From NCBI GenBank assembly GCA_018649885.1, contig JABIHA010000068.1:62001-109368 (forward strand): DNA of 47,368 nt. The letters run 5' to 3'. Every line of letters starts with the position of its first letter. Position 1 is the first letter of the stretch. The notes beneath the pieces were generated by a model. The model saw only the letters and a program-made list of their open reading frames with translations. It made no database searches and was not told the origin of the DNA. The position numbers were made by a program, and so were the translations under genes. The DNA comes from Bacteriovoracaceae bacterium (GTDB lineage Bacteria > Bdellovibrionota > Bacteriovoracia > Bacteriovoracales > Bacteriovoracaceae). Positions 1 to 32,677 of the stretch are shown one piece after another.

Positions 1-533
1 GTATCAAATACAAAGACATCCATATTTGCACCACACTTTTCTTTTATCCTATTAACATATGTCCTTCTTTTGCAAGACCTTCCATCGAGAGACGATGGAT
101 CAAGCTCTCTAAAGGAAGTGCTTATATCAATCCAAACCTCTAACTTAGAAAAGCTTTTTTTGATATTTTTAGCTTGCCCACAAAACATATCAAAATAATA
201 ATTTTTATCACAACTGATCATGTCGGTATCAACTGAAGATACATACTTGTTATTTTTTTTCTGTTTTTTCTCTATCTTAATTTCTTTTTTAAGGTTTTTA
301 TTGGGATTAGGATACAAACCTATATTTGGATCAAAGCATTGGTCACCATAAGGGATACAAACATTTTGTGCCAACTTCTCACTGTAAACAGGCTCATCAC
401 CATTGAAATGCTTCTCAAGTAATCCCATTTCATCAGGCATTAAAAACCACACTTCAATATGCTTAGGAATTGCAAAACTAGAAAAGCTAACAATAGAGCA
501 GGTTATAAGCACAAAAAATTTCAATAAATGCAT
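1..533 (-). CDS. Secreted hypothetical protein, possibly vWA-like; 3' end runs off the window
   Basis: Not in the ORF track; translated by hand from ATG at 533: MHLLKFFVLITCSIVSFSSFAIPKHIEVWF... with no stop to base 1. Has a signal peptide, several Cys, and LEVWIDISTS, a MIDAS-like DxSxS motif after a beta strand. Starts 10 bp after the XRE gene stop. Confidence 0.75.
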   Translation of the reverse strand, partial: MHLLKFFVLITCSIVSFSSFAIPKHIEVWFLMPDEMGLLEKHFNGDEPVYSEKLAQNVCIPYGDQCFDPNIGLYPNPNKNLKKEIKIEKKQKKNNKYVSSVDTDMISCDKNYYFDMFCGQAKNIKKSFSKLEVWIDISTSFRELDPSSLDGRSCKRRTYVNRIKEKCGANMDVFVFD

Positions 534-543
534 TGTGCAATTT

Positions 544-1146
544 TTAGAATTCCACACCCTTTTGCCTAAAATATCTAAATAGTGAATTACCAACATCAAC
601 AACTAAATCCTTTCCTTCTACATCCAGTTCAAGAAAATCACTTAGGTAAGCCTTTTGCCTTGGAGTAAGTCTTTCCAGCTTATCCCTTAGAGTAGTTGGA
701 TTATTTCTAGCTCCATCATCGGCCCTAAAGGGAATGCTTCTGGTCTTCCCACCAATTTTCACCTTGGCGGTTGTAGTTCGTTCAGCAGTTCCAAGCGAAG
801 AGAAGACATCATTAAACTCATCTTCCTCCTCTTCATTATCGGAAGATGGAGGTGGTTCCATAGGACCATCTTTATAGAACTGAATGAGTCTTTTAAATTG
901 CTCGGTGGAATCCTCTTCGATGAAATCAATAATCTCGTGCAACGGAATATTTAACCTTGCAACAATCTTTGCAATGAATTGCTCGTCGAGTTCCCTGGTT
1001 TTCCTGTTCAAAAAGCGCGACATGGTGGAAATTCCCACCCCAACCAAATTGGCCAAGTCCTTTTGTGAAAGGGCTCCTCGTACTTGCATATACTTACGAA
1101 TTACACCTAGAAAATCGTCTAAATAATCTCTATTGAAGCGAACCAT
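544..1146 (-). CDS. XRE-family helix-turn-helix transcriptional regulator with C-terminal extension
   Basis: LSQKDLANLVGVGISTMSRFLNRK is a typical HTH_3 motif; CAGGAGG Shine-Dalgarno upstream; acidic linker then a C-terminal domain. Confidence 0.9.
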   Translation of the reverse strand: MVRFNRDYLDDFLGVIRKYMQVRGALSQKDLANLVGVGISTMSRFLNRKTRELDEQFIAKIVARLNIPLHEIIDFIEEDSTEQFKRLIQFYKDGPMEPPPSSDNEEEEDEFNDVFSSLGTAERTTTAKVKIGGKTRSIPFRADDGARNNPTTLRDKLERLTPRQKAYLSDFLELDVEGKDLVVDVGNSLFRYFRQKGVEF

Positions 1147-1164
1147 GTTAACCTCCTGAATTGC

Positions 1165-1191
1165 TTGTCGGAACGAAATTATATTTCTTGA
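1165..1191 (-). promoter_or_regulatory. Putative sigma28 (FliA)-type promoter of the XRE gene
   Basis: Minus strand TCAA-N15-TCCGACAA versus consensus TAAA-N15-GCCGATAA, just upstream of the RBS. Confidence 0.6.
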
Positions 1192-1215
1192 TGCAATTTA
1201 TTTTCTTGACGCAAT
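1184..1215. repeat. Two 14-bp direct repeats, candidate operators
   Basis: TTTCTTGATGCAAT (1184-1197) and TTTCTTGACGCAAT (1202-1215), 18-bp period, each with a TTG-N3-CAA dyad and each overlapping one -35 box. Confidence 0.6.
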
Positions 1216-1234
1216 GGGTCAGACTTGCTATTCT
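1206..1234 (+). promoter_or_regulatory. sigma70-type promoter with extended -10
   Basis: TTGACG-17 nt-TATTCT, with TG at the extended -10 position. Confidence 0.75.
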
Positions 1235-1267
1235 GGGATTGTTGACACGCAGCCTAGGAGGCCACAA

Positions 1268-1696
1268 GTGAAAAGTACAACACTCAAGCACTTCTCAACT
1301 CAACCCCTAGTAAAGCCACACGAGGTCTACATGACCGTTCAATGTGAAGCTCTAAGTGATTGTATTCTTAAGGGAAAGATTATTTCCGGTTCCCTCCTCT
1401 CTCGCACAACTTTTTCGCGGGTGACTTTCGAAGGCTGCGTGTTCTTCGCCTCTGAAATAGAAGGATGTGAATTTGCAGGATGCAACTTTGTAAATTGTGA
1501 AATCCAATTTACTAACATCCAAGGATCTACTTTTGAAGCATGCAATTTTGAAAATTGCGATTGGGAATTATCAGAAGTTAAAAATTGCAATTTCTCAAGT
1601 ACTGGAATGGATTCCACTACTACTATTACCCTAGGAAAGGGAACAAACAGCATGGAAGCCTGCTTTATCGGCAACGGAATTGCTCAAGCAGCATAA
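1268..1696 (+). CDS. Pentapeptide-repeat protein
   Basis: Five-residue periodicity (TTFSR VTFEG CVFFA SEIEG CEFAG CNFVN...). Start moved to GTG 1268 because AGGAGG precedes it and ATG 1214 lies inside the promoter. Confidence 0.85.
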   Translation: MKSTTLKHFSTQPLVKPHEVYMTVQCEALSDCILKGKIISGSLLSRTTFSRVTFEGCVFFASEIEGCEFAGCNFVNCEIQFTNIQGSTFEACNFENCDWELSEVKNCNFSSTGMDSTTTITLGKGTNSMEACFIGNGIAQAA

Positions 1697-1758
1697 TCAA
1701 CCAAGATGGTTGCGGGCTGGAAGCCCAGGGCAAGAAGCCCTTTGGTCATGGAGACCAG

Positions 1759-1922
1759 CAAGGATGAAGAGAATTGAGCAGGAAGCTCACCCAAGGATGA
1801 ACAAAATTGAGCAAGAAGCTCACCAAGGATGAACAAAATTAAGCAAGAAGCTCACCAAGGATGAAGAGAATTGAGCAGGAAGCTCAGCCAAGGATGAAGA
1901 AAATTGAGCAGGAGGCTCACCC
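1759..1922 (+). repeat. Five tandem 32-33-bp units
   Basis: Units start at 1759, 1792, 1824, 1856 and 1889; consensus CAAGGATGAASARAATTGAGCARGAAGCTCAC(C). Confidence 0.95.
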
Positions 1923-2118
1923 GCATGCGGGCACTAAATAATGAAAAAGATTAAAAATATACCCGGAACAAGGACACCGCAAACTACTCAACCTACCTCA
2001 AGGAGTGGACTTCCGGATTCAAATCAATCACGCGAGGTGGGTAACATATCTAAAACCTGATTAAGTGCAAGGATGTGCTCAGGTCTGATCAAACCCTGGA
2101 GAATTTCTCTACGGTCTT

Positions 2119-2149
2119 AAAGCCCTCGGTTATGCCGGGGTTTTCCTTT
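2119..2149 (+). terminator. Rho-independent terminator
   Basis: AAAGCCCTCGGT-TAT-GCCGGGGTTTT hairpin followed by CCTTT. Confidence 0.8.
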
Positions 2150-2340
2150 GATTTCGACTAAACAAATTTTATTTAGATATCATGCTGACTTAATTCACAT
2201 CCTGCCACTGGATTTCAACGCATCTGCAACATAAATGAGTGTAATTATTACTCTCTCACCAGCAATTCGTTTAAGTTTTAGATTCCTTATGAAATAAGCA
2301 AAAAACAACAAATAAAGAAGACTAATTGGGAGCCAACTAC

Positions 2341-5262
2341 TTGAACAAGCTTTGCCGACTATCTCTTTTATGGACCTTGCTCATATTTTCAATTGGAGCA
2401 AAGGCCACAATCCCATTGTTTACTGAGGTCGAAAACGAGCTCTCCTACTGGAGCGAGCAGATTTGCAAGCAAGATTCATTTCCAGCAAATGTGGAGTGGA
2501 TTAAATACCATGTAGCAGACCCCGTTCCGCAGTACCAAGTTGAGAGATTCTTCACATACCTTGAAAAGCTCAATAACCTAGTCACGAAAGAGGTCAATAA
2601 ACCTATTGAAAAGAGGCTTTTACCCAGTACAGAATTTCTCTCCTACATTCAGGGCAATATTGATTATGAGGATTACAAATTTGCCTATGAGACTGGAATC
2701 GAAACCTTTATCGATCTTCCTCAAACCCTAGGTGAACAACTAGATATTATTTTAGGACATTTAATTGAAGTCTATGGTCCCAGCCAATTTTCGTTGGCCA
2801 TTAGCCAAGTTTCAGAGCTTGTCACTTTAAGGGGGACTTCAACTAACCACAGAAAGTATGTGGCGGTAATGAATTACTATGAGCTATTAGAAAGAGGGAT
2901 CAAATGTCTTAGTAAACAAGATATTCGCTATGATCAGTTTTATTTTATTCGAGGCGCAAGCAGATTAAACTTATTTAAAATCAACATATACCCAGATGCC
3001 CTTACAGATGATCTCAGAAATACACTCTCTGTGGAGCCTAGAATAAAGATAAGTACCAAAAGTAGTGACGGTTCCACAGAAAACCAAATGATAGGAAAAA
3101 TCAAAATAGGAACGGCCTCAATTCATAGGGCCGAGACTTTCGGTTACCTTTCACAATACGGATCATTTTCATATGAAGCTGCACTTCTGATGCTACATAA
3201 AAAAATTATGGACCGAAGAAAACAAAGAGGTGAATACGTAACCTATGCAGGGGAGTACACTGAAAAAAGAGATCTTTATAATTACAATATGGCCAAGTAC
3301 GACCAAAAATTAACACTACGGCTCGTAAAAAGAGGATATCTCTCCCAACTATTAATTCACTCCTATGTTTTTAAACTTCTCCATCGAAACCCGGCAACTA
3401 AAAGAGTCATGCTTCCTGTAAACGGTTGCTACAATGATTATATTCAAAAACAAGAAGGTTTTTTAGGATTTAAATTTAAGAAACAAAGACCTGCCCACCC
3501 AGGAAAACTTCTTACCCTTGAATCCCTTGCTAATGATTTAACAGAATTTTCCATAGAGAAAAGAAAAACCGGTAATCAAAATGATTCCAATGAAAATGAT
3601 ATTTTAGGTGAGAAGACCTGGGAAATTAGAAAGAGATACCACTCTGATATAGTTGCAACTGCTTACAAAATGCACCAGCTTAAAAACTATATTAAAAAGG
3701 CCAATAAGTTGTGGTGGTGGATCTTTGCAACCCGGCAATGCATAAACCCTTCAGAAACCCCATCTAGAGATGATATTTGCGCCACAGTCTATGAACAAAG
3801 AAAGATTGCTCTTGATAAGCTAAAAGCCGATATCGAACTTTTAAAAGAATCCCTCTCCCTTGCTGGCTCAATTTATCCAGAGCTCACAATTAAAAACCAT
3901 GCAGAAGTTGAACTATACAACCAGCTCGTTAACTACGAGCTAAGTGAATATACTATTGACTACACTAAGTTTACTGAAAGTAAGCTACTCACAAAAGGTT
4001 TAGCTGAATCTGAAATTCATAGAATTGAAGAAAATGGTGAAAAAATCTATCAATACTATAGTGTGGAACACTTCGTCCCATCACACAAACTCAAACAAAT
4101 AGAAGACACACTGACAAAAGCCATCCGTACTAATCAAAGACAAATGTCAGTTGTTTGTTCAATGAGCTCGCTTAAGGAACTCAAAAAACTCACATCAAGT
4201 ACAATGGTCTACTACAATAGAGTTGATCCAGAAATTAAATCTTATATCCAAAATAATCTTAAGGATCTGAGCAAATACCAAAAGAAAGCTTTAATGAAGA
4301 GAATTGATAACGCTTTTGAAGGTGCAGTTTCTGCAAAACAGAAATCAGACAAAACCAAAGAAGGCGCATACGCAGTAGGAGTTTTGGCCGGCTCAGCTGT
4401 ATTAATTGGAGGGACACTATTTTTTGCACCTCCCGCTGCACTTGTGGCACTTGCAGGTATTGCACTAGCTGGAAGTGAATCATATTATTACTTCAAGCAT
4501 ATTGTGCCTAAATATGAATACGCCAAAAGAGAATACCAAGCTTCAAACTCACTTGATTTGAGGCATATATTTCACGATATAGATGCAACCTATATGGATA
4601 AATTGCTATCGGACCCAGTTCCTCTAGGAAGCCATGATCGGTATGCCGAAATGGTGAAAGAGCATAAGTGGGAGAAAGCTTTTTATTACGGAGGCCTTGC
4701 CATTGATGTTTTTGTTCCAGGCCTCAAGGGCGGAACAAAGGCCTTTGCAAAAACAGTAAAGGCAGCAAGGTACTCAATGCTTTTACTGAGATCCACCAGA
4801 CTTGGGAGCAGGGTCTACAAGACAGCAAGAATCTCACTCAGCGGACAAAAATGGATCTCACTAAGACGCTTTTGGATTGCTTCAGGTATATCCTCAATTG
4901 CCCTTATGAAAGGGCACACAAGTGAAGAAGATTCGAAAAAGGCATATTACGCCACTTCTGCACATATGCTCGATAATTTTCCCATCGAAGATTGGATAAA
5001 ATATAAAATGAAATTTTTAGAGCCGATTGTAAAGACAAATGGATTTGCATATTTATTCGAAAAAGATGAAGCATACGAAATTCAAAAGTATTCTGAAATG
5101 AACAGTGCACAATTTAGAGAGAAATTACAAAGTATCATGAGGGAATTCCAAACCCAGGCAGGAATTAATTACACGATTAAGTCTCAAAGTGGACAAGTGC
5201 AAGTAATTTCTTATGATGACCTCATTGTAACAGAAACGAATATTAGGGGAGAGAATGACTAA
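2341..5262 (+). CDS. Large secreted hypothetical protein with internal hydrophobic Gly/Ala hairpin
   Basis: ~970-aa ORF; GGGAG precedes TTG 2341 (track start 2326); signal peptide ...SIGAKA; hydrophobic segment AVGVLAGSAVLIGGTLFFAPPAALVALAGIALAG. Confidence 0.8.
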   Translation: MNKLCRLSLLWTLLIFSIGAKATIPLFTEVENELSYWSEQICKQDSFPANVEWIKYHVADPVPQYQVERFFTYLEKLNNLVTKEVNKPIEKRLLPSTEFLSYIQGNIDYEDYKFAYETGIETFIDLPQTLGEQLDIILGHLIEVYGPSQFSLAISQVSELVTLRGTSTNHRKYVAVMNYYELLERGIKCLSKQDIRYDQFYFIRGASRLNLFKINIYPDALTDDLRNTLSVEPRIKISTKSSDGSTENQMIGKIKIGTASIHRAETFGYLSQYGSFSYEAALLMLHKKIMDRRKQRGEYVTYAGEYTEKRDLYNYNMAKYDQKLTLRLVKRGYLSQLLIHSYVFKLLHRNPATKRVMLPVNGCYNDYIQKQEGFLGFKFKKQRPAHPGKLLTLESLANDLTEFSIEKRKTGNQNDSNENDILGEKTWEIRKRYHSDIVATAYKMHQLKNYIKKANKLWWWIFATRQCINPSETPSRDDICATVYEQRKIALDKLKADIELLKESLSLAGSIYPELTIKNHAEVELYNQLVNYELSEYTIDYTKFTESKLLTKGLAESEIHRIEENGEKIYQYYSVEHFVPSHKLKQIEDTLTKAIRTNQRQMSVVCSMSSLKELKKLTSSTMVYYNRVDPEIKSYIQNNLKDLSKYQKKALMKRIDNAFEGAVSAKQKSDKTKEGAYAVGVLAGSAVLIGGTLFFAPPAALVALAGIALAGSESYYYFKHIVPKYEYAKREYQASNSLDLRHIFHDIDATYMDKLLSDPVPLGSHDRYAEMVKEHKWEKAFYYGGLAIDVFVPGLKGGTKAFAKTVKAARYSMLLLRSTRLGSRVYKTARISLSGQKWISLRRFWIASGISSIALMKGHTSEEDSKKAYYATSAHMLDNFPIEDWIKYKMKFLEPIVKTNGFAYLFEKDEAYEIQKYSEMNSAQFREKLQSIMREFQTQAGINYTIKSQSGQVQVISYDDLIVTETNIRGEND

Positions 5263-7924
5263 ATTTCTACGGGCCATGATATTATGCATGTGTTGCTCAC
5301 TATTCTTTTCCAATGTCTATGCGACTCCGGTGTCAGCATTAAGACATCTTGATGAAGTTGTATCTGCATTTAAGCATGTAGATAATGTCGATAGTTTTTC
5401 TGAATTTTTAAAAGTGGGAAGAAGATCGGGCAGAATAGTCAATTTGCCAGAGCATATTGAAACTTTTGCTGATCTTGCTAGATACATAGACGATATTGCT
5501 GAAACCGGCTCAGATGCTCCAAAAGTCAAACAAGCAAAAAAAATGCTCGAAGAAATTGCCATAGAAATGGGAGAAAACCCAAATGCATGGAGAAAAATGG
5601 TTAGCTCACGGGCCATTGAAAGACAACTTGCACGCTCGAGCGAAGTTCTCGCCGAAGCTTCAGACACTTCAAGAAGTAATAGATGGGGAAGGAAAAAAGG
5701 TAGAGGAGCAAGACCTGCTGCTGATGTGGCCAGGAGAGCTCTTTCTTCACCAGAAGATTCTATTATTACTAAATTTTTAGATGCTGCAACTGATGGCTCT
5801 CTTTCAAGAAGAGGACTAGTAGTTACCCCCAATACAAAATTTTCAAAAGAAGTGTTAAGCTCCATGCTAGATTTGGCTGCACGCCAAAGATATACCATAG
5901 AAGAAACACTGGAAGCTTTTACCAACCCAGGAAAACTAAAACTTCTCATTCAAAAAGGATTTGAGGCCAAAAGGGTCAGAATCCTAAAAGCAGCTGGCGA
6001 TATTCCCCATGGAAATCCCCACAGGGCAACTCTTCTTGCTAAGCTAGATGAACTTGCATCGGCGGAGTCTGCAGCTCTGAGAAGAGTTGACGAATTTCTT
6101 CCAAGCTCCCCTGATAAACTGGCGGAAGAATTTGGAAGTGGCCTTTCTGCTCTCAGGAAAAAAATGGGTCTTGAAAAGCGTGGAGCAAGAAGAGTACTCG
6201 GAAGGGCCGGCCAAAAAGTTGTCCACAGCGTTTTAAGAGTTGATAGAAGAGCTGCTGAGATTATAACTGAACTCGTTGAGGGAACTCAAAAGAGAATGGT
6301 TCAAAGCTTACAAGGGCGAAAACTTGTAACTCGGGCAGTAGATGGAAGTCTTGAAACAGTTGAGCTTACAGAAAGTAATATTAAGAAAATAGTAAAAACT
6401 CTTGAAGGTGCAGAAGATGCACAGCTAGATAAGTTTTTAAGAATGACTGATGCTGACTTAGGAGGTCTTCCTCTTGCCAAAAGACTTGAGTATCTATCAA
6501 GCGTAGAAGATCTTATCACTGAGTATCGCCATGGCATGCAGCAAACATTCGAAACACCTATTGATGAATTAGTTCAATATTCTAAAAATCTAAAAAGAAC
6601 GCTTGAAGAGATGAGCTCACTTAGGTCAGCTTCAAGTCACAGCATCGCTCCCTCACAAGTTGATGAGTTATTTGATGGAAGTGGAAGGTGGGCCGGTTAT
6701 CTTCACCAAATGCAAAGAAGATCAGAAGTGGTTGATGAAATCAGTGGAGCTATTTTTTCTCCTTCAAAGCTAACTTCAAAAGTCATGCGCCAAAAGCACG
6801 TCTCAAGAATAATCGAAAATAATTGGATATTAAGAGAGCTCTATGAACCATTAGAGTCTGCAGCGAGTAGGGTTGATGATGTTGGTGTAATATACGACGA
6901 CACTGTAGCCGTTTTAAAAAATGGTGTACTTGAAAATCCAGGATCCTATGGCGACATTGTGAGAAAGTTTGGAAGCCAGCTTTCTTTGCGCGAACTAAAG
7001 GCCCTTAAAACTCAGCAGTACTCACTCGCAGGAATGAGAAGATCTGCAATCGACATGGTACATCCAGAGACTCTTGCAAATGGAGTCAGAAGATTTAGAC
7101 TAAAATCTGTGGATGTTTTAATACTCGGAACGGCTTTTAGCTTTATTGGATACTTTACAAAACTATATTTCATCAATCCCAACGCCGCTAGCCTGGTTGA
7201 AATTATTGTCGACTACAAAAAGAAATTCTTTGGAATGGAAGCAGAAACTTTTGAGCTGGCCATGATGGTTGATATGAATGACAGGATTGTTCGTGATATT
7301 ATTTCAAATGGTCAACATAAACTAGATGAAAGAGTTTCTGATATCGATCTATTAACAACAGAAATTCGTGATCTTAAAATGAGTTTGATTCCACTTAAAA
7401 CAGAAAAAGCCAAAATTTACCTTGCCTCTCCTGAAGTTAAAAAAATTGTTGAAAGCGGTAGTGGTGAAGCCGGAGAGCTTAGTGAATTAGTCTTTATAAT
7501 TGATGATATTGACAGGCAACTTGCAGCGAGAGAAAAACTCCTTCAAGAAAAATCTGATATTATGTATGCAGAGCTTGCTGGTATCGGATCATACTTTCAT
7601 CAATACTCCGAATATTGGTCCAAATATGCTCAATACCTTGCTACTAAAGGTCTTATTGCTATAAAAGTAGACCTCAACCAAAGTACAGGCGTCTATAAAT
7701 CCATAAGACTTGAATACAGTGTCGACTACCAAGAAGAGCCCATCATCTATAATTACGATGTTGAATTGCACAAAAGATTTATAAGCCTTTTGGAAATAAA
7801 TAATGATTTCTCAATGGGGATCGTCAGAACAAAATTAAATTGGGCAGTTTTAATTTCAGAAATGGATCCAAGTATTTCAGACAAGGATCTAATAAAGCAG
7901 CTCACTATTCGATATGACCAATAA
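5255..7924 (+). CDS. Large exported hypothetical helical protein with one internal transmembrane segment
   Basis: 889 aa; GGGGAG RBS; 8-bp overlap with the upstream gene; signal peptide ...SNVYA; TM-like VLILGTAFSFIGYFTKLYFI followed by coiled-coil-like sequence. Confidence 0.8.
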   Translation: MTKFLRAMILCMCCSLFFSNVYATPVSALRHLDEVVSAFKHVDNVDSFSEFLKVGRRSGRIVNLPEHIETFADLARYIDDIAETGSDAPKVKQAKKMLEEIAIEMGENPNAWRKMVSSRAIERQLARSSEVLAEASDTSRSNRWGRKKGRGARPAADVARRALSSPEDSIITKFLDAATDGSLSRRGLVVTPNTKFSKEVLSSMLDLAARQRYTIEETLEAFTNPGKLKLLIQKGFEAKRVRILKAAGDIPHGNPHRATLLAKLDELASAESAALRRVDEFLPSSPDKLAEEFGSGLSALRKKMGLEKRGARRVLGRAGQKVVHSVLRVDRRAAEIITELVEGTQKRMVQSLQGRKLVTRAVDGSLETVELTESNIKKIVKTLEGAEDAQLDKFLRMTDADLGGLPLAKRLEYLSSVEDLITEYRHGMQQTFETPIDELVQYSKNLKRTLEEMSSLRSASSHSIAPSQVDELFDGSGRWAGYLHQMQRRSEVVDEISGAIFSPSKLTSKVMRQKHVSRIIENNWILRELYEPLESAASRVDDVGVIYDDTVAVLKNGVLENPGSYGDIVRKFGSQLSLRELKALKTQQYSLAGMRRSAIDMVHPETLANGVRRFRLKSVDVLILGTAFSFIGYFTKLYFINPNAASLVEIIVDYKKKFFGMEAETFELAMMVDMNDRIVRDIISNGQHKLDERVSDIDLLTTEIRDLKMSLIPLKTEKAKIYLASPEVKKIVESGSGEAGELSELVFIIDDIDRQLAAREKLLQEKSDIMYAELAGIGSYFHQYSEYWSKYAQYLATKGLIAIKVDLNQSTGVYKSIRLEYSVDYQEEPIIYNYDVELHKRFISLLEINNDFSMGIVRTKLNWAVLISEMDPSISDKDLIKQLTIRYDQ

Positions 7925-7927
7925 GTA

Positions 7928-8764
7928 TCATCCAAATTTAAGTGATATATCTACCGATGGTGCATCGTATGTTATTTTCCCGATGCTAATTCCATCGACA
8001 CCACTAATAAGATAATTTTTGATGTTTTCCAGGTTTATTCCACCTGAAACTTCAAAAGTCATAGAATCTCTTTTTAGGGAGATCGCTTCAGAGACTTGTT
8101 CAGGGGAAAAGTTATCGAGCATAACATGCTTCACTCCAAGAGATATGGCCTCTTCAAGTTCACTGGTATTATGAATCTCTACAACAATAGAATTATAAAA
8201 AGAGCCCATCTTGTTAAAAAATTCAAGAGCGTCTTTTAAACTTCCAAAAAAGCTTTTGTGATTATCTTTGATCATCCAGGTATCAGTCTGCCCCATTCGA
8301 TGATTATATCCACCTCCAACTCTCACAGCATATTTTTCTAGAAATCTCAGACCTGGTGTCGTTTTTCTAGTATCGAGAATTTTGATTCCAGAGGCCTCGG
8401 CAATTTTCACAAATTTATTAGTGTATGTAGAAACAGATGAAGATCTTTGAAGTAAGTTAAGAGCAAGTCTTTCACCTGAGAGCGCCACATTGAATGGAAG
8501 CTCAAACTCGATCATTTCATTTTCACTTTTTGAAATTTTTCGTCCTTCCCAGTCGGAAGCATCGACGATTGAAAAATTTTCTCCTATAAGTTCTGAGAAA
8601 ACTGATTCGACAAAGGGAAGCCCCGAGAGAATTAGATCATCCTTCAATTTAAGTTGGCATTTCACATTTCGAGTTGGAAGAGATTGGTTGTAGAAAATAT
8701 TTCTCGAGAAATCATCTTCTTCAAAAAATTTGTTAACCACTTGTCTCAACGAGAGATTCTTCAT
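7928..8764 (-). CDS. nadC: Nicotinate-nucleotide diphosphorylase (quinolinate phosphoribosyltransferase)
   Basis: Motifs ERLALNLLQ, DTRKTTPGLR, NHRMG, IKDNH, MLDNF, EVSGGI. Confidence 0.97.
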   Translation of the reverse strand: MKNLSLRQVVNKFFEEDDFSRNIFYNQSLPTRNVKCQLKLKDDLILSGLPFVESVFSELIGENFSIVDASDWEGRKISKSENEMIEFELPFNVALSGERLALNLLQRSSSVSTYTNKFVKIAEASGIKILDTRKTTPGLRFLEKYAVRVGGGYNHRMGQTDTWMIKDNHKSFFGSLKDALEFFNKMGSFYNSIVVEIHNTSELEEAISLGVKHVMLDNFSPEQVSEAISLKRDSMTFEVSGGINLENIKNYLISGVDGISIGKITYDAPSVDISLKFG

Positions 8765-31693: not shown

Positions 31694-31903
31694 AAACGAT
31701 ACTCTCGCAAAAATCAACTGTTAGGTTACTTCGGATAATTAAAATTTAATTAAACAATATTAAATAGATAGCGCTATTCAAGAACAACTCGCAATGTCAG
31801 AAACCAAGACTTTCGCCCCCATGTGTTGATTTCATTTTGACCAATTGAAAAAATTTTCCCAAGGTGTTCCTAGAACTTGAAACATTTACATAAAGGAGCA
31901 CTT

Positions 31904-32677
31904 ATGAATTTAAATGTTTTTACAAAAATGATCATGACCTTTGTATTAGCAATGGGAATGTTGTCTTCTAACTTAGAAGCAAAAGGCAGAAAAGCGCGGC
32001 CAGGTAAAAGAGGCCCAAGTCACCGTCCCGCAAGACCTCACCGGCCTTCAAGACCTAGTCATCGTCCTGCAAGACCACGTCCATCAAGACCGAGTCACCG
32101 TCCTGCAAGACCTCACCGTCCTTCAAGACCACATCACCGTCCTGCAAGACCACACCGTCCTTCAAGACCACATCACCGTCCTGCAAGAACACACCGTCCT
32201 TCAAGACCACATCACCGTCCTGCAAGAAACCATCACCACAGAAAACATGTGAGAGGTCCATGGAGAAGAGTTGCACACTCAAGGCCAGGAAGACATCACA
32301 GAAATTTCAGAGTAATTGGTCATCACCATGCAAGATATGCAAGGCCTCATTACTACTGGAGAAATGTACCTAGACACCACTACTACAGAAGCTGGTTAAT
32401 GTGGTCAGTAGACGTAAATATCTACGTCAATGGTTACTATGCTTTTAATAACTACCCTTACTATGTATTTAACGGTTACAGGCATCGTTACTCATCAGTA
32501 GATCTATGTGATTACGATCTAGTTGATAGCTACAGTGATACTATAGAGAAAACTTTTTACGGCCTTTCTTGTAAAAGAGCATATGACAAATGTGCCTTTG
32601 AAAGAACTATCTTTAACGAAAGTGAAAGAGACTACCGTTACTTTTGTGCAGAAAAATTTGACAACTCATACCTATAA
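31904..32677 (+). CDS. Secreted His/Arg/Pro-repeat protein with C-terminal four-Cys domain
   Basis: AAGGAG RBS, signal peptide ...NLEA, HRPARPHRPSRP(S/H) repeats, Tyr-rich C-terminus. Confidence 0.85.
   Translation: MNLNVFTKMIMTFVLAMGMLSSNLEAKGRKARPGKRGPSHRPARPHRPSRPSHRPARPRPSRPSHRPARPHRPSRPHHRPARPHRPSRPHHRPARTHRPSRPHHRPARNHHHRKHVRGPWRRVAHSRPGRHHRNFRVIGHHHARYARPHYYWRNVPRHHYYRSWLMWSVDVNIYVNGYYAFNNYPYYVFNGYRHRYSSVDLCDYDLVDSYSDTIEKTFYGLSCKRAYDKCAFERTIFNESERDYRYFCAEKFDNSYL
32021..32227 (+). repeat. In-frame coding tandem repeat, 39-bp units (one of 36 bp)
   Basis: Units at 32021, 32060, 32096, 32135, 32174 and a partial one at 32213; CACCGTCCTGCAAGACCWCACCGTCCTTCAAGACCACAT. Confidence 0.95.

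Follow-up and report, generated by a model that had tools for sequence, protein, structure and literature searches.

The 3' untranslated region (UTR) of a pentapeptide-repeat gene in a Bacteriovoracaceae genome carries what, on comparative sequence evidence, is a real, conserved and previously uncatalogued structured RNA, and a probable CsrA antagonist. It lies at positions 1697-2149 on the plus strand of a 47,368-nt stretch of DNA, hereafter the window, to which all coordinates refer. The reading we prefer, with a probability of about 0.58, is that this RNA would titrate CsrA and compete for it with the flagellin leaders, alongside the protein FliW. By analogy, it is best read as an element that works like the RsmW RNA of Pseudomonas aeruginosa, placed in a 3' UTR and unrelated to the CsrB/Rsm family.

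Features of the array

A preliminary description had reported about 17 GGA motifs in about 450 nt, beginning directly after a stop codon and ending in a terminator, and this outline holds. The first base of the region follows the TAA of the plus-strand pentapeptide-repeat ORF; 17 GGA were counted on the plus strand and 2 on the minus strand; and the 3' end is an intrinsic terminator at about 2120-2149 (+). Plain GGA is not significantly enriched (17 against a shuffle mean of 13.1, with 154 of 2000 dinucleotide shuffles attaining 17), and the excess of ANGGA, of which there are nine, is marginal (78/2000). The excess of CANGGA is clear: nine are present against a shuffle mean of 1.1, and none of 2000 dinucleotide shuffles attains nine. 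Among 400-nt intervals of the 5.4-Mb host genome, the region ranks second for CANGGA density.

The four 5' hairpins and five tandem units described earlier are both present. The hairpins are short and occupy 1698-1758 (+); two of them have GGA in the loop (1719 and 1750), predicted to be unpaired with a probability of 0.92-0.97. The units, of 33, 32, 32, 33 and 33 nt, fill 1759-1921 (+) with starts at 1759, 1792, 1824, 1856 and 1889, and each joins a CAAGGAUG linker to a hairpin whose loop is AGGA or AAGA. Their lengths break the reading frame, and AGA replaces GGA in two of the four 5'-hairpin loops and two of the five unit loops. In local folds, predicted unpaired probabilities are 0.83-0.98 for the six loop GGAs, 0.48-0.75 for the five unit-linker GGAs and 0.34 for other G; taken as a whole, the region folds with no unusual stability (z -1.45). 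An AU-rich linker at 1932-1962 (+), for which no fold is predicted, is a candidate RNase E/G cleavage site. The 3' part had been described as a branched domain. Both of the stems named for it exist, but the one formed by ACCTACCTC and GAGGTGGGT is half of a pseudoknot, crossing a helix between CCGGAA (1963-1968) and TTCCGG (2011-2016).

A seawater metatranscriptome, found through matching this stretch itself, holds 59% of the sampled words of the stretch, bearing in mind that an RNA library can hold DNA. Two of its contigs match without a difference, one covering 1268-1788 at a depth of 75.6 and reaching 92 nt past the stop codon, the other covering 1759-1885 at a depth of 37.5; they give no strand, ends, level or proof of a single transcript. 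The RNA contigs start at 1268, the GTG start codon of the pentapeptide gene, and the flanking genes in 1-6000 have no matching contig in the same metatranscriptome. Most of the array is real sequence, and the bridging of coding sequence (CDS) and array by a contig, itself without strand or ends, hints at read-through transcription from the one into the other, in agreement with the 3'-UTR location first proposed. No contig in four of the 11 RNA runs listed covers 1886-2149, which includes the pseudoknot, a gap that is uninformative either way. Of these four runs, two each gave one short contig inside the CDS, and another contains a relative's sequence.

A conserved pseudoknot core

A search for related loci with a single HTH protein, the product of the gene divergent from the pentapeptide gene, returned none, and an alignment query was used instead. 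We took 120 loci (20 including the host genome, and 100 among the matches listed), of which 113 were left after seven had been dropped because the contig ended. Most relatives with a name carry the label Bacteriovoracaceae, Halobacteriovorax, Bacteriovorax or Peredibacter, which identifies the family as Bacteriovoracaceae (Bdellovibrionota).

At least 52 of the 113 loci have an H-type pseudoknot after the orthologous pentapeptide gene. In the window it spans 1963-2042 (+), with stems P1 (1963-1968/2011-2016) and P2 (1991-1999/2034-2042) and the junction AAGGA at 2000-2004; an additional CAAGGA lies within it at 1969-1974. The core runs from the pseudoknot with its 5-nt ANGGA junction to a hairpin with ANGGA in the loop and then to the terminator. 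The first ANGGA is held between crossing stems: the bases 5' of it have their partners 20-40 nt downstream (P2), and those 3' of it have theirs upstream (P1). P1 in the relatives usually consists of two helices with a 3-nt bulge between them, and that of the window is shorter than usual. The second hairpin (2055-2084, +; GGA at 2071) is conserved in the family, a second ANGGA being found in 43 of the 52 pseudoknot loci and, in 31, within the loop of a minimum-free-energy (MFE) hairpin.

Scoring by script found a pseudoknot with an ANGGA junction at 42 of the 113 loci, against a mean of 4.8 (maximum 9) in shuffles with ANGGA replanted. Of these 42 script matches one was removed and one repositioned, and the set of 52 was reached from 40 script hits by adding bulged cases by eye. 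In sequence-only alignments, judged against controls that do not take out kinship, the pairing of P2 reaches 82% and includes 69 double changes (0 of 500 shuffles; 37-51% in slid controls), and that of the full 28-pair structure reaches 72% (33-45% when slid). P2 occurs as 18 different 6-mers, and at least six pairs form in 88% of own stems versus 10% of swapped ones; the energy of P1 is -9.2 kcal/mol with its own partner and -5.0 kcal/mol when swapped. The N of the junction ANGGA is variable (A32/T12/C5/G3), and its other positions are fixed. RNAalifold retrieved P2 only, because pseudoknots lie outside its output and the alignment was built on sequence alone; in that alignment hairpin 2 has a poorly matched inner stem (56% paired). 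Under nested folding a competing hairpin is predicted to pair the window's junction GGA, leaving it 0.3 unpaired, and in 55 relatives only 34 of 94 ANGGA are more than 0.5 unpaired.

A covariance model of P2 and hairpin 2, trained on 32 rows, left P1 out for a held-out test. It matched 65 of 149 other family genomes at E ≤0.05 and 52 at E ≤0.001, training genomes included, and found one strong place in the host genome, where the element is single-copy. Among 80 named loci it gave 26 matches, some from Halobacteriovorax-labelled records. Fifteen of the 18 non-training matches that were fetched lie just after a pentapeptide stop codon, and in the 14 new matches that were scored the unmodelled P1 had an energy of -10.7 kcal/mol versus -6.5±2.5 kcal/mol when swapped, the own partner being best in 6 of 14. 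The pseudoknot element is restricted to the family within the genomes searched. The covarying pseudoknot is a structured RNA motif that is new and not in Rfam 15; no Rfam family reached its gathering score in the window or in the loci of 20 relatives. Two of 120 genomes of other families matched the model at E of about 0.04-0.05, which we took as chance, and three weak in-family matches away from the gene (L223, L229, L230) are without the consensus.

Distribution of the sites and expansion in the host genome

Across 110 loci with full N-free sequence, host genome excluded, the first 170 nt after the stop codon hold 109 CANGGA, against 20.8±4.8 in shuffled sequence; the opposite strand has 8 and the interval +300-470 has 15. 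Over the whole host genome, the 170 nt following a stop codon contain 0.12 on average. Some CANGGA in relatives are Shine-Dalgarno (SD) sequences of a small ORF (23 loci), and plain GGA is not enriched (359 vs 344). Fixed 170-nt lengths were used because our own terminator finder was too strict, finding 68 of 113 and missing the terminator of the window itself.

The distance from stop codon to junction is 24-54 nt in 51 other pseudoknot loci and 303 nt in the window, and the CANGGA in 460 nt number five or fewer in every relative, compared with nine in the window. On these two comparisons the 5' array, including the four hairpins, is an insertion seen only in the host genome among the genomes examined.

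By a rough rule, the 113 loci divide into at least 52 with the pseudoknot, 16 with plain ANGGA hairpins, 11 with one site, 23 with a small ORF and 11 with none. The plain hairpins occupy the same place in another clade. A quick, midpoint-rooted tree of the HTH protein gathers 51 of the 52 pseudoknot rows into a single group with weak support (84), to which 15 of the 16 hairpin rows do not belong; deep support in this tree is weak and we therefore claim no order of events. The 34 of 113 loci that, by our rule, have a small ORF or no site, although CsrA is nearly universal (encoded in 144 of 145 good genomes and in 226 of all 237 genomes of the family), indicate that the element is dispensable in some lineages.

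The small hydrophobic ORF, of about 23-28 aa, stands in place of the pseudoknot at 23 of the 113 loci (e.g., L053, L059, L083, L114, L118-L121). It has its own SD, ends in AYGI or similar and is conserved in sequence across one clade, and is likely to encode an unannotated small membrane protein. Lineages without GGA sites (L023, L025, L027, L062, L016, L074) have a short UTR made up of a CUCUCUCC tract and a terminator; the tract resembles an anti-SD seed.

The pentapeptide gene and its probable divergent regulator

The upstream gene (1268-1696, +) encodes a pentapeptide-repeat protein of 142 aa (Pfam Pentapeptide_4/_3) and has a GTG start after AGGAGG at 1256-1261. Atlas look-alikes of the protein comprise pentapeptide-repeat clusters only. 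It ends in -AA; a C-terminal AA is found in 66 of the 113 orthologues, and the C-terminus nearly always has small residues with Ala. This ending, which we take to resemble a ClpXP degradation tag, suggests by analogy that the protein is short-lived.

Divergent from it is an XRE/Cro-type HTH gene (544-1146, -; Pfam HTH_26/HTH_3), present in 196 of 237 Bacteriovoracaceae genomes. The operator/promoter between them (1185-1234, +) has two direct repeats of TTCTTGAYGCAA (1185-1196 and 1203-1214), 18 nt apart and overlying the -35 box TTGACG (1206-1211), with GTC in the spacer and a -10 box TATTCT (1229-1234). The full pattern is found in 83 of the 113 loci, and the host genome has no second full copy. 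Such a single, very highly conserved operator suggests a dedicated HTH-pentapeptide switch, and the HTH protein is likely to regulate the promoter that it shares with the pentapeptide gene.

CsrA, FliW and the proposed mechanism

The host genome has one csrA, adjoining fliW, and its CsrA has a C-terminal extension, with R44 and N55 read from the sequence. Three flagellin-like genes, chosen by pattern, have ANGGA in their leaders, one of them in a TCAC-AAGGA-GTGA hairpin, which fits the use of ANGGA by CsrA in this host. RNase E/G is encoded and RNase J probably so. Hfq was not found in the host genome, which is 92% complete, with PF17209 (control positive in 5 of 14), which was used because PF01423 has no match in E. 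coli. The earlier proposal of a candidate CsrA-binding element in the 3' UTR fits well with CsrA being encoded, ANGGA in the flagellin leaders, the CANGGA-rich orthologous 3' UTRs and the contig that bridges CDS and array.

We propose that the conserved sigma-70-type promoter would transcribe the pentapeptide gene and its 3' UTR as far as the terminator, and that the 3' UTR would bind CsrA. The two sites common to the family, in the pseudoknot junction and the hairpin loop, would suffice for one CsrA dimer. In the host genome, tandem duplication would have added about eleven GGA sites and turned this into a CsrB-sized, multi-dimer sponge of about 15 sites. When the locus is on, the RNA, either as the full-length molecule or after RNase E/G cleavage in the AU-rich linker, would pull CsrA off the flagellin leaders and other targets, and this titration would run beside the FliW partner switch. 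CsrA binding, titration in trans, processing and control by the HTH protein are what we infer. Weighing against the proposal are the ordinary frequency of plain GGA in the region and in relatives, the many sites that are paired under nested folding, and the loci with a small ORF or no site.

According to a 2020 review, it 'remains to be determined' whether any species uses FliW and sRNAs together on CsrA (PMC7652899, as worded in an excerpt). The locus would, if the proposal is true, answer the question of whether both FliW and RNA antagonists bear on CsrA within one species. It gives a concrete RNA candidate in a group of marine predatory bacteria thought to control CsrA by a protein partner only. 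The pseudoknot junction would also be a new structural context for a putative CsrA site. CsrA has been implicated in Bdellovibrio predation (as cited in an excerpt of PMC13443453), so an RNA antagonist could join the control of motility and life cycle in predatory bacteria. We see an even chance that the wider interpretation is right, namely that these loci form an undescribed Bdellovibrionota family of CsrA-antagonist RNAs, with a pseudoknot-junction site in the 3' UTR of a short-lived protein's gene and acting in the same cell as FliW, and that tandem duplication has here enlarged their two-site clamp to a sponge on the scale of CsrB, in which the CsrB design would be seen arising independently and still in progress.

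Comparison with known CsrA antagonists

The region resembles CsrB and RsmX/Y/Z (Rfam clan CL00106) in its repeated CAGGA-type motifs in loops and linkers, including the nine CANGGA and the six highly unpaired loop GGAs, in its length of 450 nt, in its intrinsic terminator and in having a cognate csrA in the same genome. It differs in that its conserved core is a pseudoknot and its host encodes FliW. Membership of the CsrB/Rsm family fails: the best Rfam match, a weak likeness to RsmY, scores 18.3 bits against a gathering score of 57. An independent UvrY/GacA promoter of the CsrB type was also not found at the locus, where a GacA-box-like pattern (motif as in an excerpt of PMC4950607, a Pseudomonas paper) is absent from 1-2400, no conserved internal promoter was found in the 52 loci and the contig crosses the stop codon. 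The view that the array has no separate promoter stands except for one weak sigma-70-like match (9/12) at 1668-1697, overlapping the stop; in 165 nt around the stop, a strict sigma-70/28/54 pattern occurs in 0 of the 52 pseudoknot-class loci.

RsmW of P. aeruginosa is a multi-GGA RNA in the 3' UTR of the small gene PA4570, apparently co-transcribed with it as there is no intervening terminator; it binds RsmA and is excised, probably by RNase E (excerpts of PMC4950607 and PMC13622538). A 3'-UTR location in itself is already precedented by RsmW. The element described here likewise lies in a small gene's 3' UTR with no terminator between, but it differs in the host gene, the phylum, the FliW-type CsrA and the presentation of its site by a pseudoknot. 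For RsmW, binding and processing have been demonstrated, whereas the present element is known from sequence and an RNA contig.

Other known systems are less similar in placement or in the proteins involved. The dual-function flaA mRNA of Campylobacter reportedly acts through its 5' leader, in contrast to the 3' UTR here. McaS and GadY are Hfq-dependent and enterobacterial, and differ in this from the present element, Hfq not having been found in its host genome. They are dual sRNAs that combine base-pairing with CsrA binding and have at least two GGA motifs (an excerpt of PMC7652899); two or more GGA motifs and a possible seed occur here too. A CrcZ-like Hfq/Crc sponge was considered and rejected on the same Hfq result from the 92% complete genome.

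The csrA gene beside fliW, the N55 extension and the ANGGA flagellin leaders resemble the CsrA-FliW-flagellin switch of B. subtilis, C. jejuni and G. sulfurreducens. FliW species of this type are described in an excerpt of PMC13407953 as being without CsrB-type sRNAs, and FliW is strongly anti-correlated with BarA-UvrY, the system transcribing CsrB (an excerpt of PMC4682653). The CsrA of B. bacteriovorus represses the B. subtilis hag leader (an excerpt of PMC13443453). Unverified CsrA-sRNA predictions exist for Geobacter and Oceanobacillus, and Bdellovibrio and Bacteriovorax do not figure in the main text of that report as excerpted (PMC5568370). The literature on CsrA, FliW and sRNA in Bdellovibrionota judged from listings, yielded no description of the element; supplementary prediction tables or further papers might list the locus.

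Alternative explanations

An unlikely but serviceable alternative is a 3'-UTR element that acts in cis, with CsrA clamping pseudoknot and hairpin and setting the stability or fate of the pentapeptide mRNA, and no titration in trans; the pseudoknot may also act as a nuclease block. Most relatives have only two sites (exactly two ANGGA in 44 of 110), which fits a cis role equally with a sponge, and the element is single-copy and always tied to the pentapeptide gene; RNase E/G and probably RNase J are encoded. However, the approximately 15 sites here and the 3-5 ANGGA in 30 of 110 relatives exceed what a cis switch needs, and an abundant multi-site RNA would be expected to titrate CsrA anyway.

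Quite improbable is a base-pairing sRNA derived from the 3' UTR, whose C/U-rich, anti-SD-like seed ahead of the terminator would pair with target mRNAs while CsrA, in this Hfq-less lineage, would serve as chaperone. Of 112 relatives, 39 do have CCTACC within the first 200 nt, compared with 0 for the opposite strand and 2 for sequence further downstream, C/U-rich tracts persist where GGA sites are missing, and the failure to find Hfq in the 92% complete genome is in keeping with it. But the CCTACC of the window is buried in stem P2 (1991-1999) instead of lying free ahead of the terminator, and the expansion brought GGA sites and no seed.

We give little credence to a core that binds a protein or ligand other than CsrA, the 5' repeats being a neutral slippage expansion. 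CsrA sites are usually described in hairpin loops, a context unlike the junction site here; the literature on CsrA and pseudoknots, judged from titles and abstract openings, has no description of a junction-type site, and GGA has been lost from the loop in two of five units. Against this, the same fixed A-N-G-G-A with a free N recurs not only at both sites of the core but also in the repeats, the hairpin-only clade and the flagellin leaders.

A downstream-gene leader or riboswitch, a type III toxin-antitoxin array or a coding repeat is largely refuted by the variable downstream context: tandem units of about 33 nt, a pseudoknot and a terminator before a same-strand ORF (2326-5262) give the outline of a type III antitoxin array, but the long ORF that follows runs on the other strand in 29 of the 52 loci, which argues against a leader, and on the same strand in 16 of 52, with unrelated sequences (crude ORF calls), the 978-aa downstream ORF has no Pfam hit, Rfam gave no match, the pseudoknot is not inside the repeats and the unit lengths break the frame. 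A ToxN search gave 0 matches, its control also giving 0 everywhere.

Other features of the window and genome

The densest CANGGA interval of the host genome is on contig C62 (11420-11860), where a 30-nt unit is repeated about 14 times, with 10 CATGGA on the plus strand, between a plus-strand ORF and a convergent HNH-like gene. Most of its GGAs are predicted to be paired, and this repeat is probably unrelated to the UTR array. In the window, two large ORFs of 978 and 889 aa without Pfam hits (2326-7924) separate the locus from nadC (7928-8764); in many relatives a convergent gene, presumably nadB-like, directly follows the UTR. A further ORF of 266 aa (31877-32677) has numerous Arg-Pro-His-rich tandem repeats ahead of an aromatic-rich domain.
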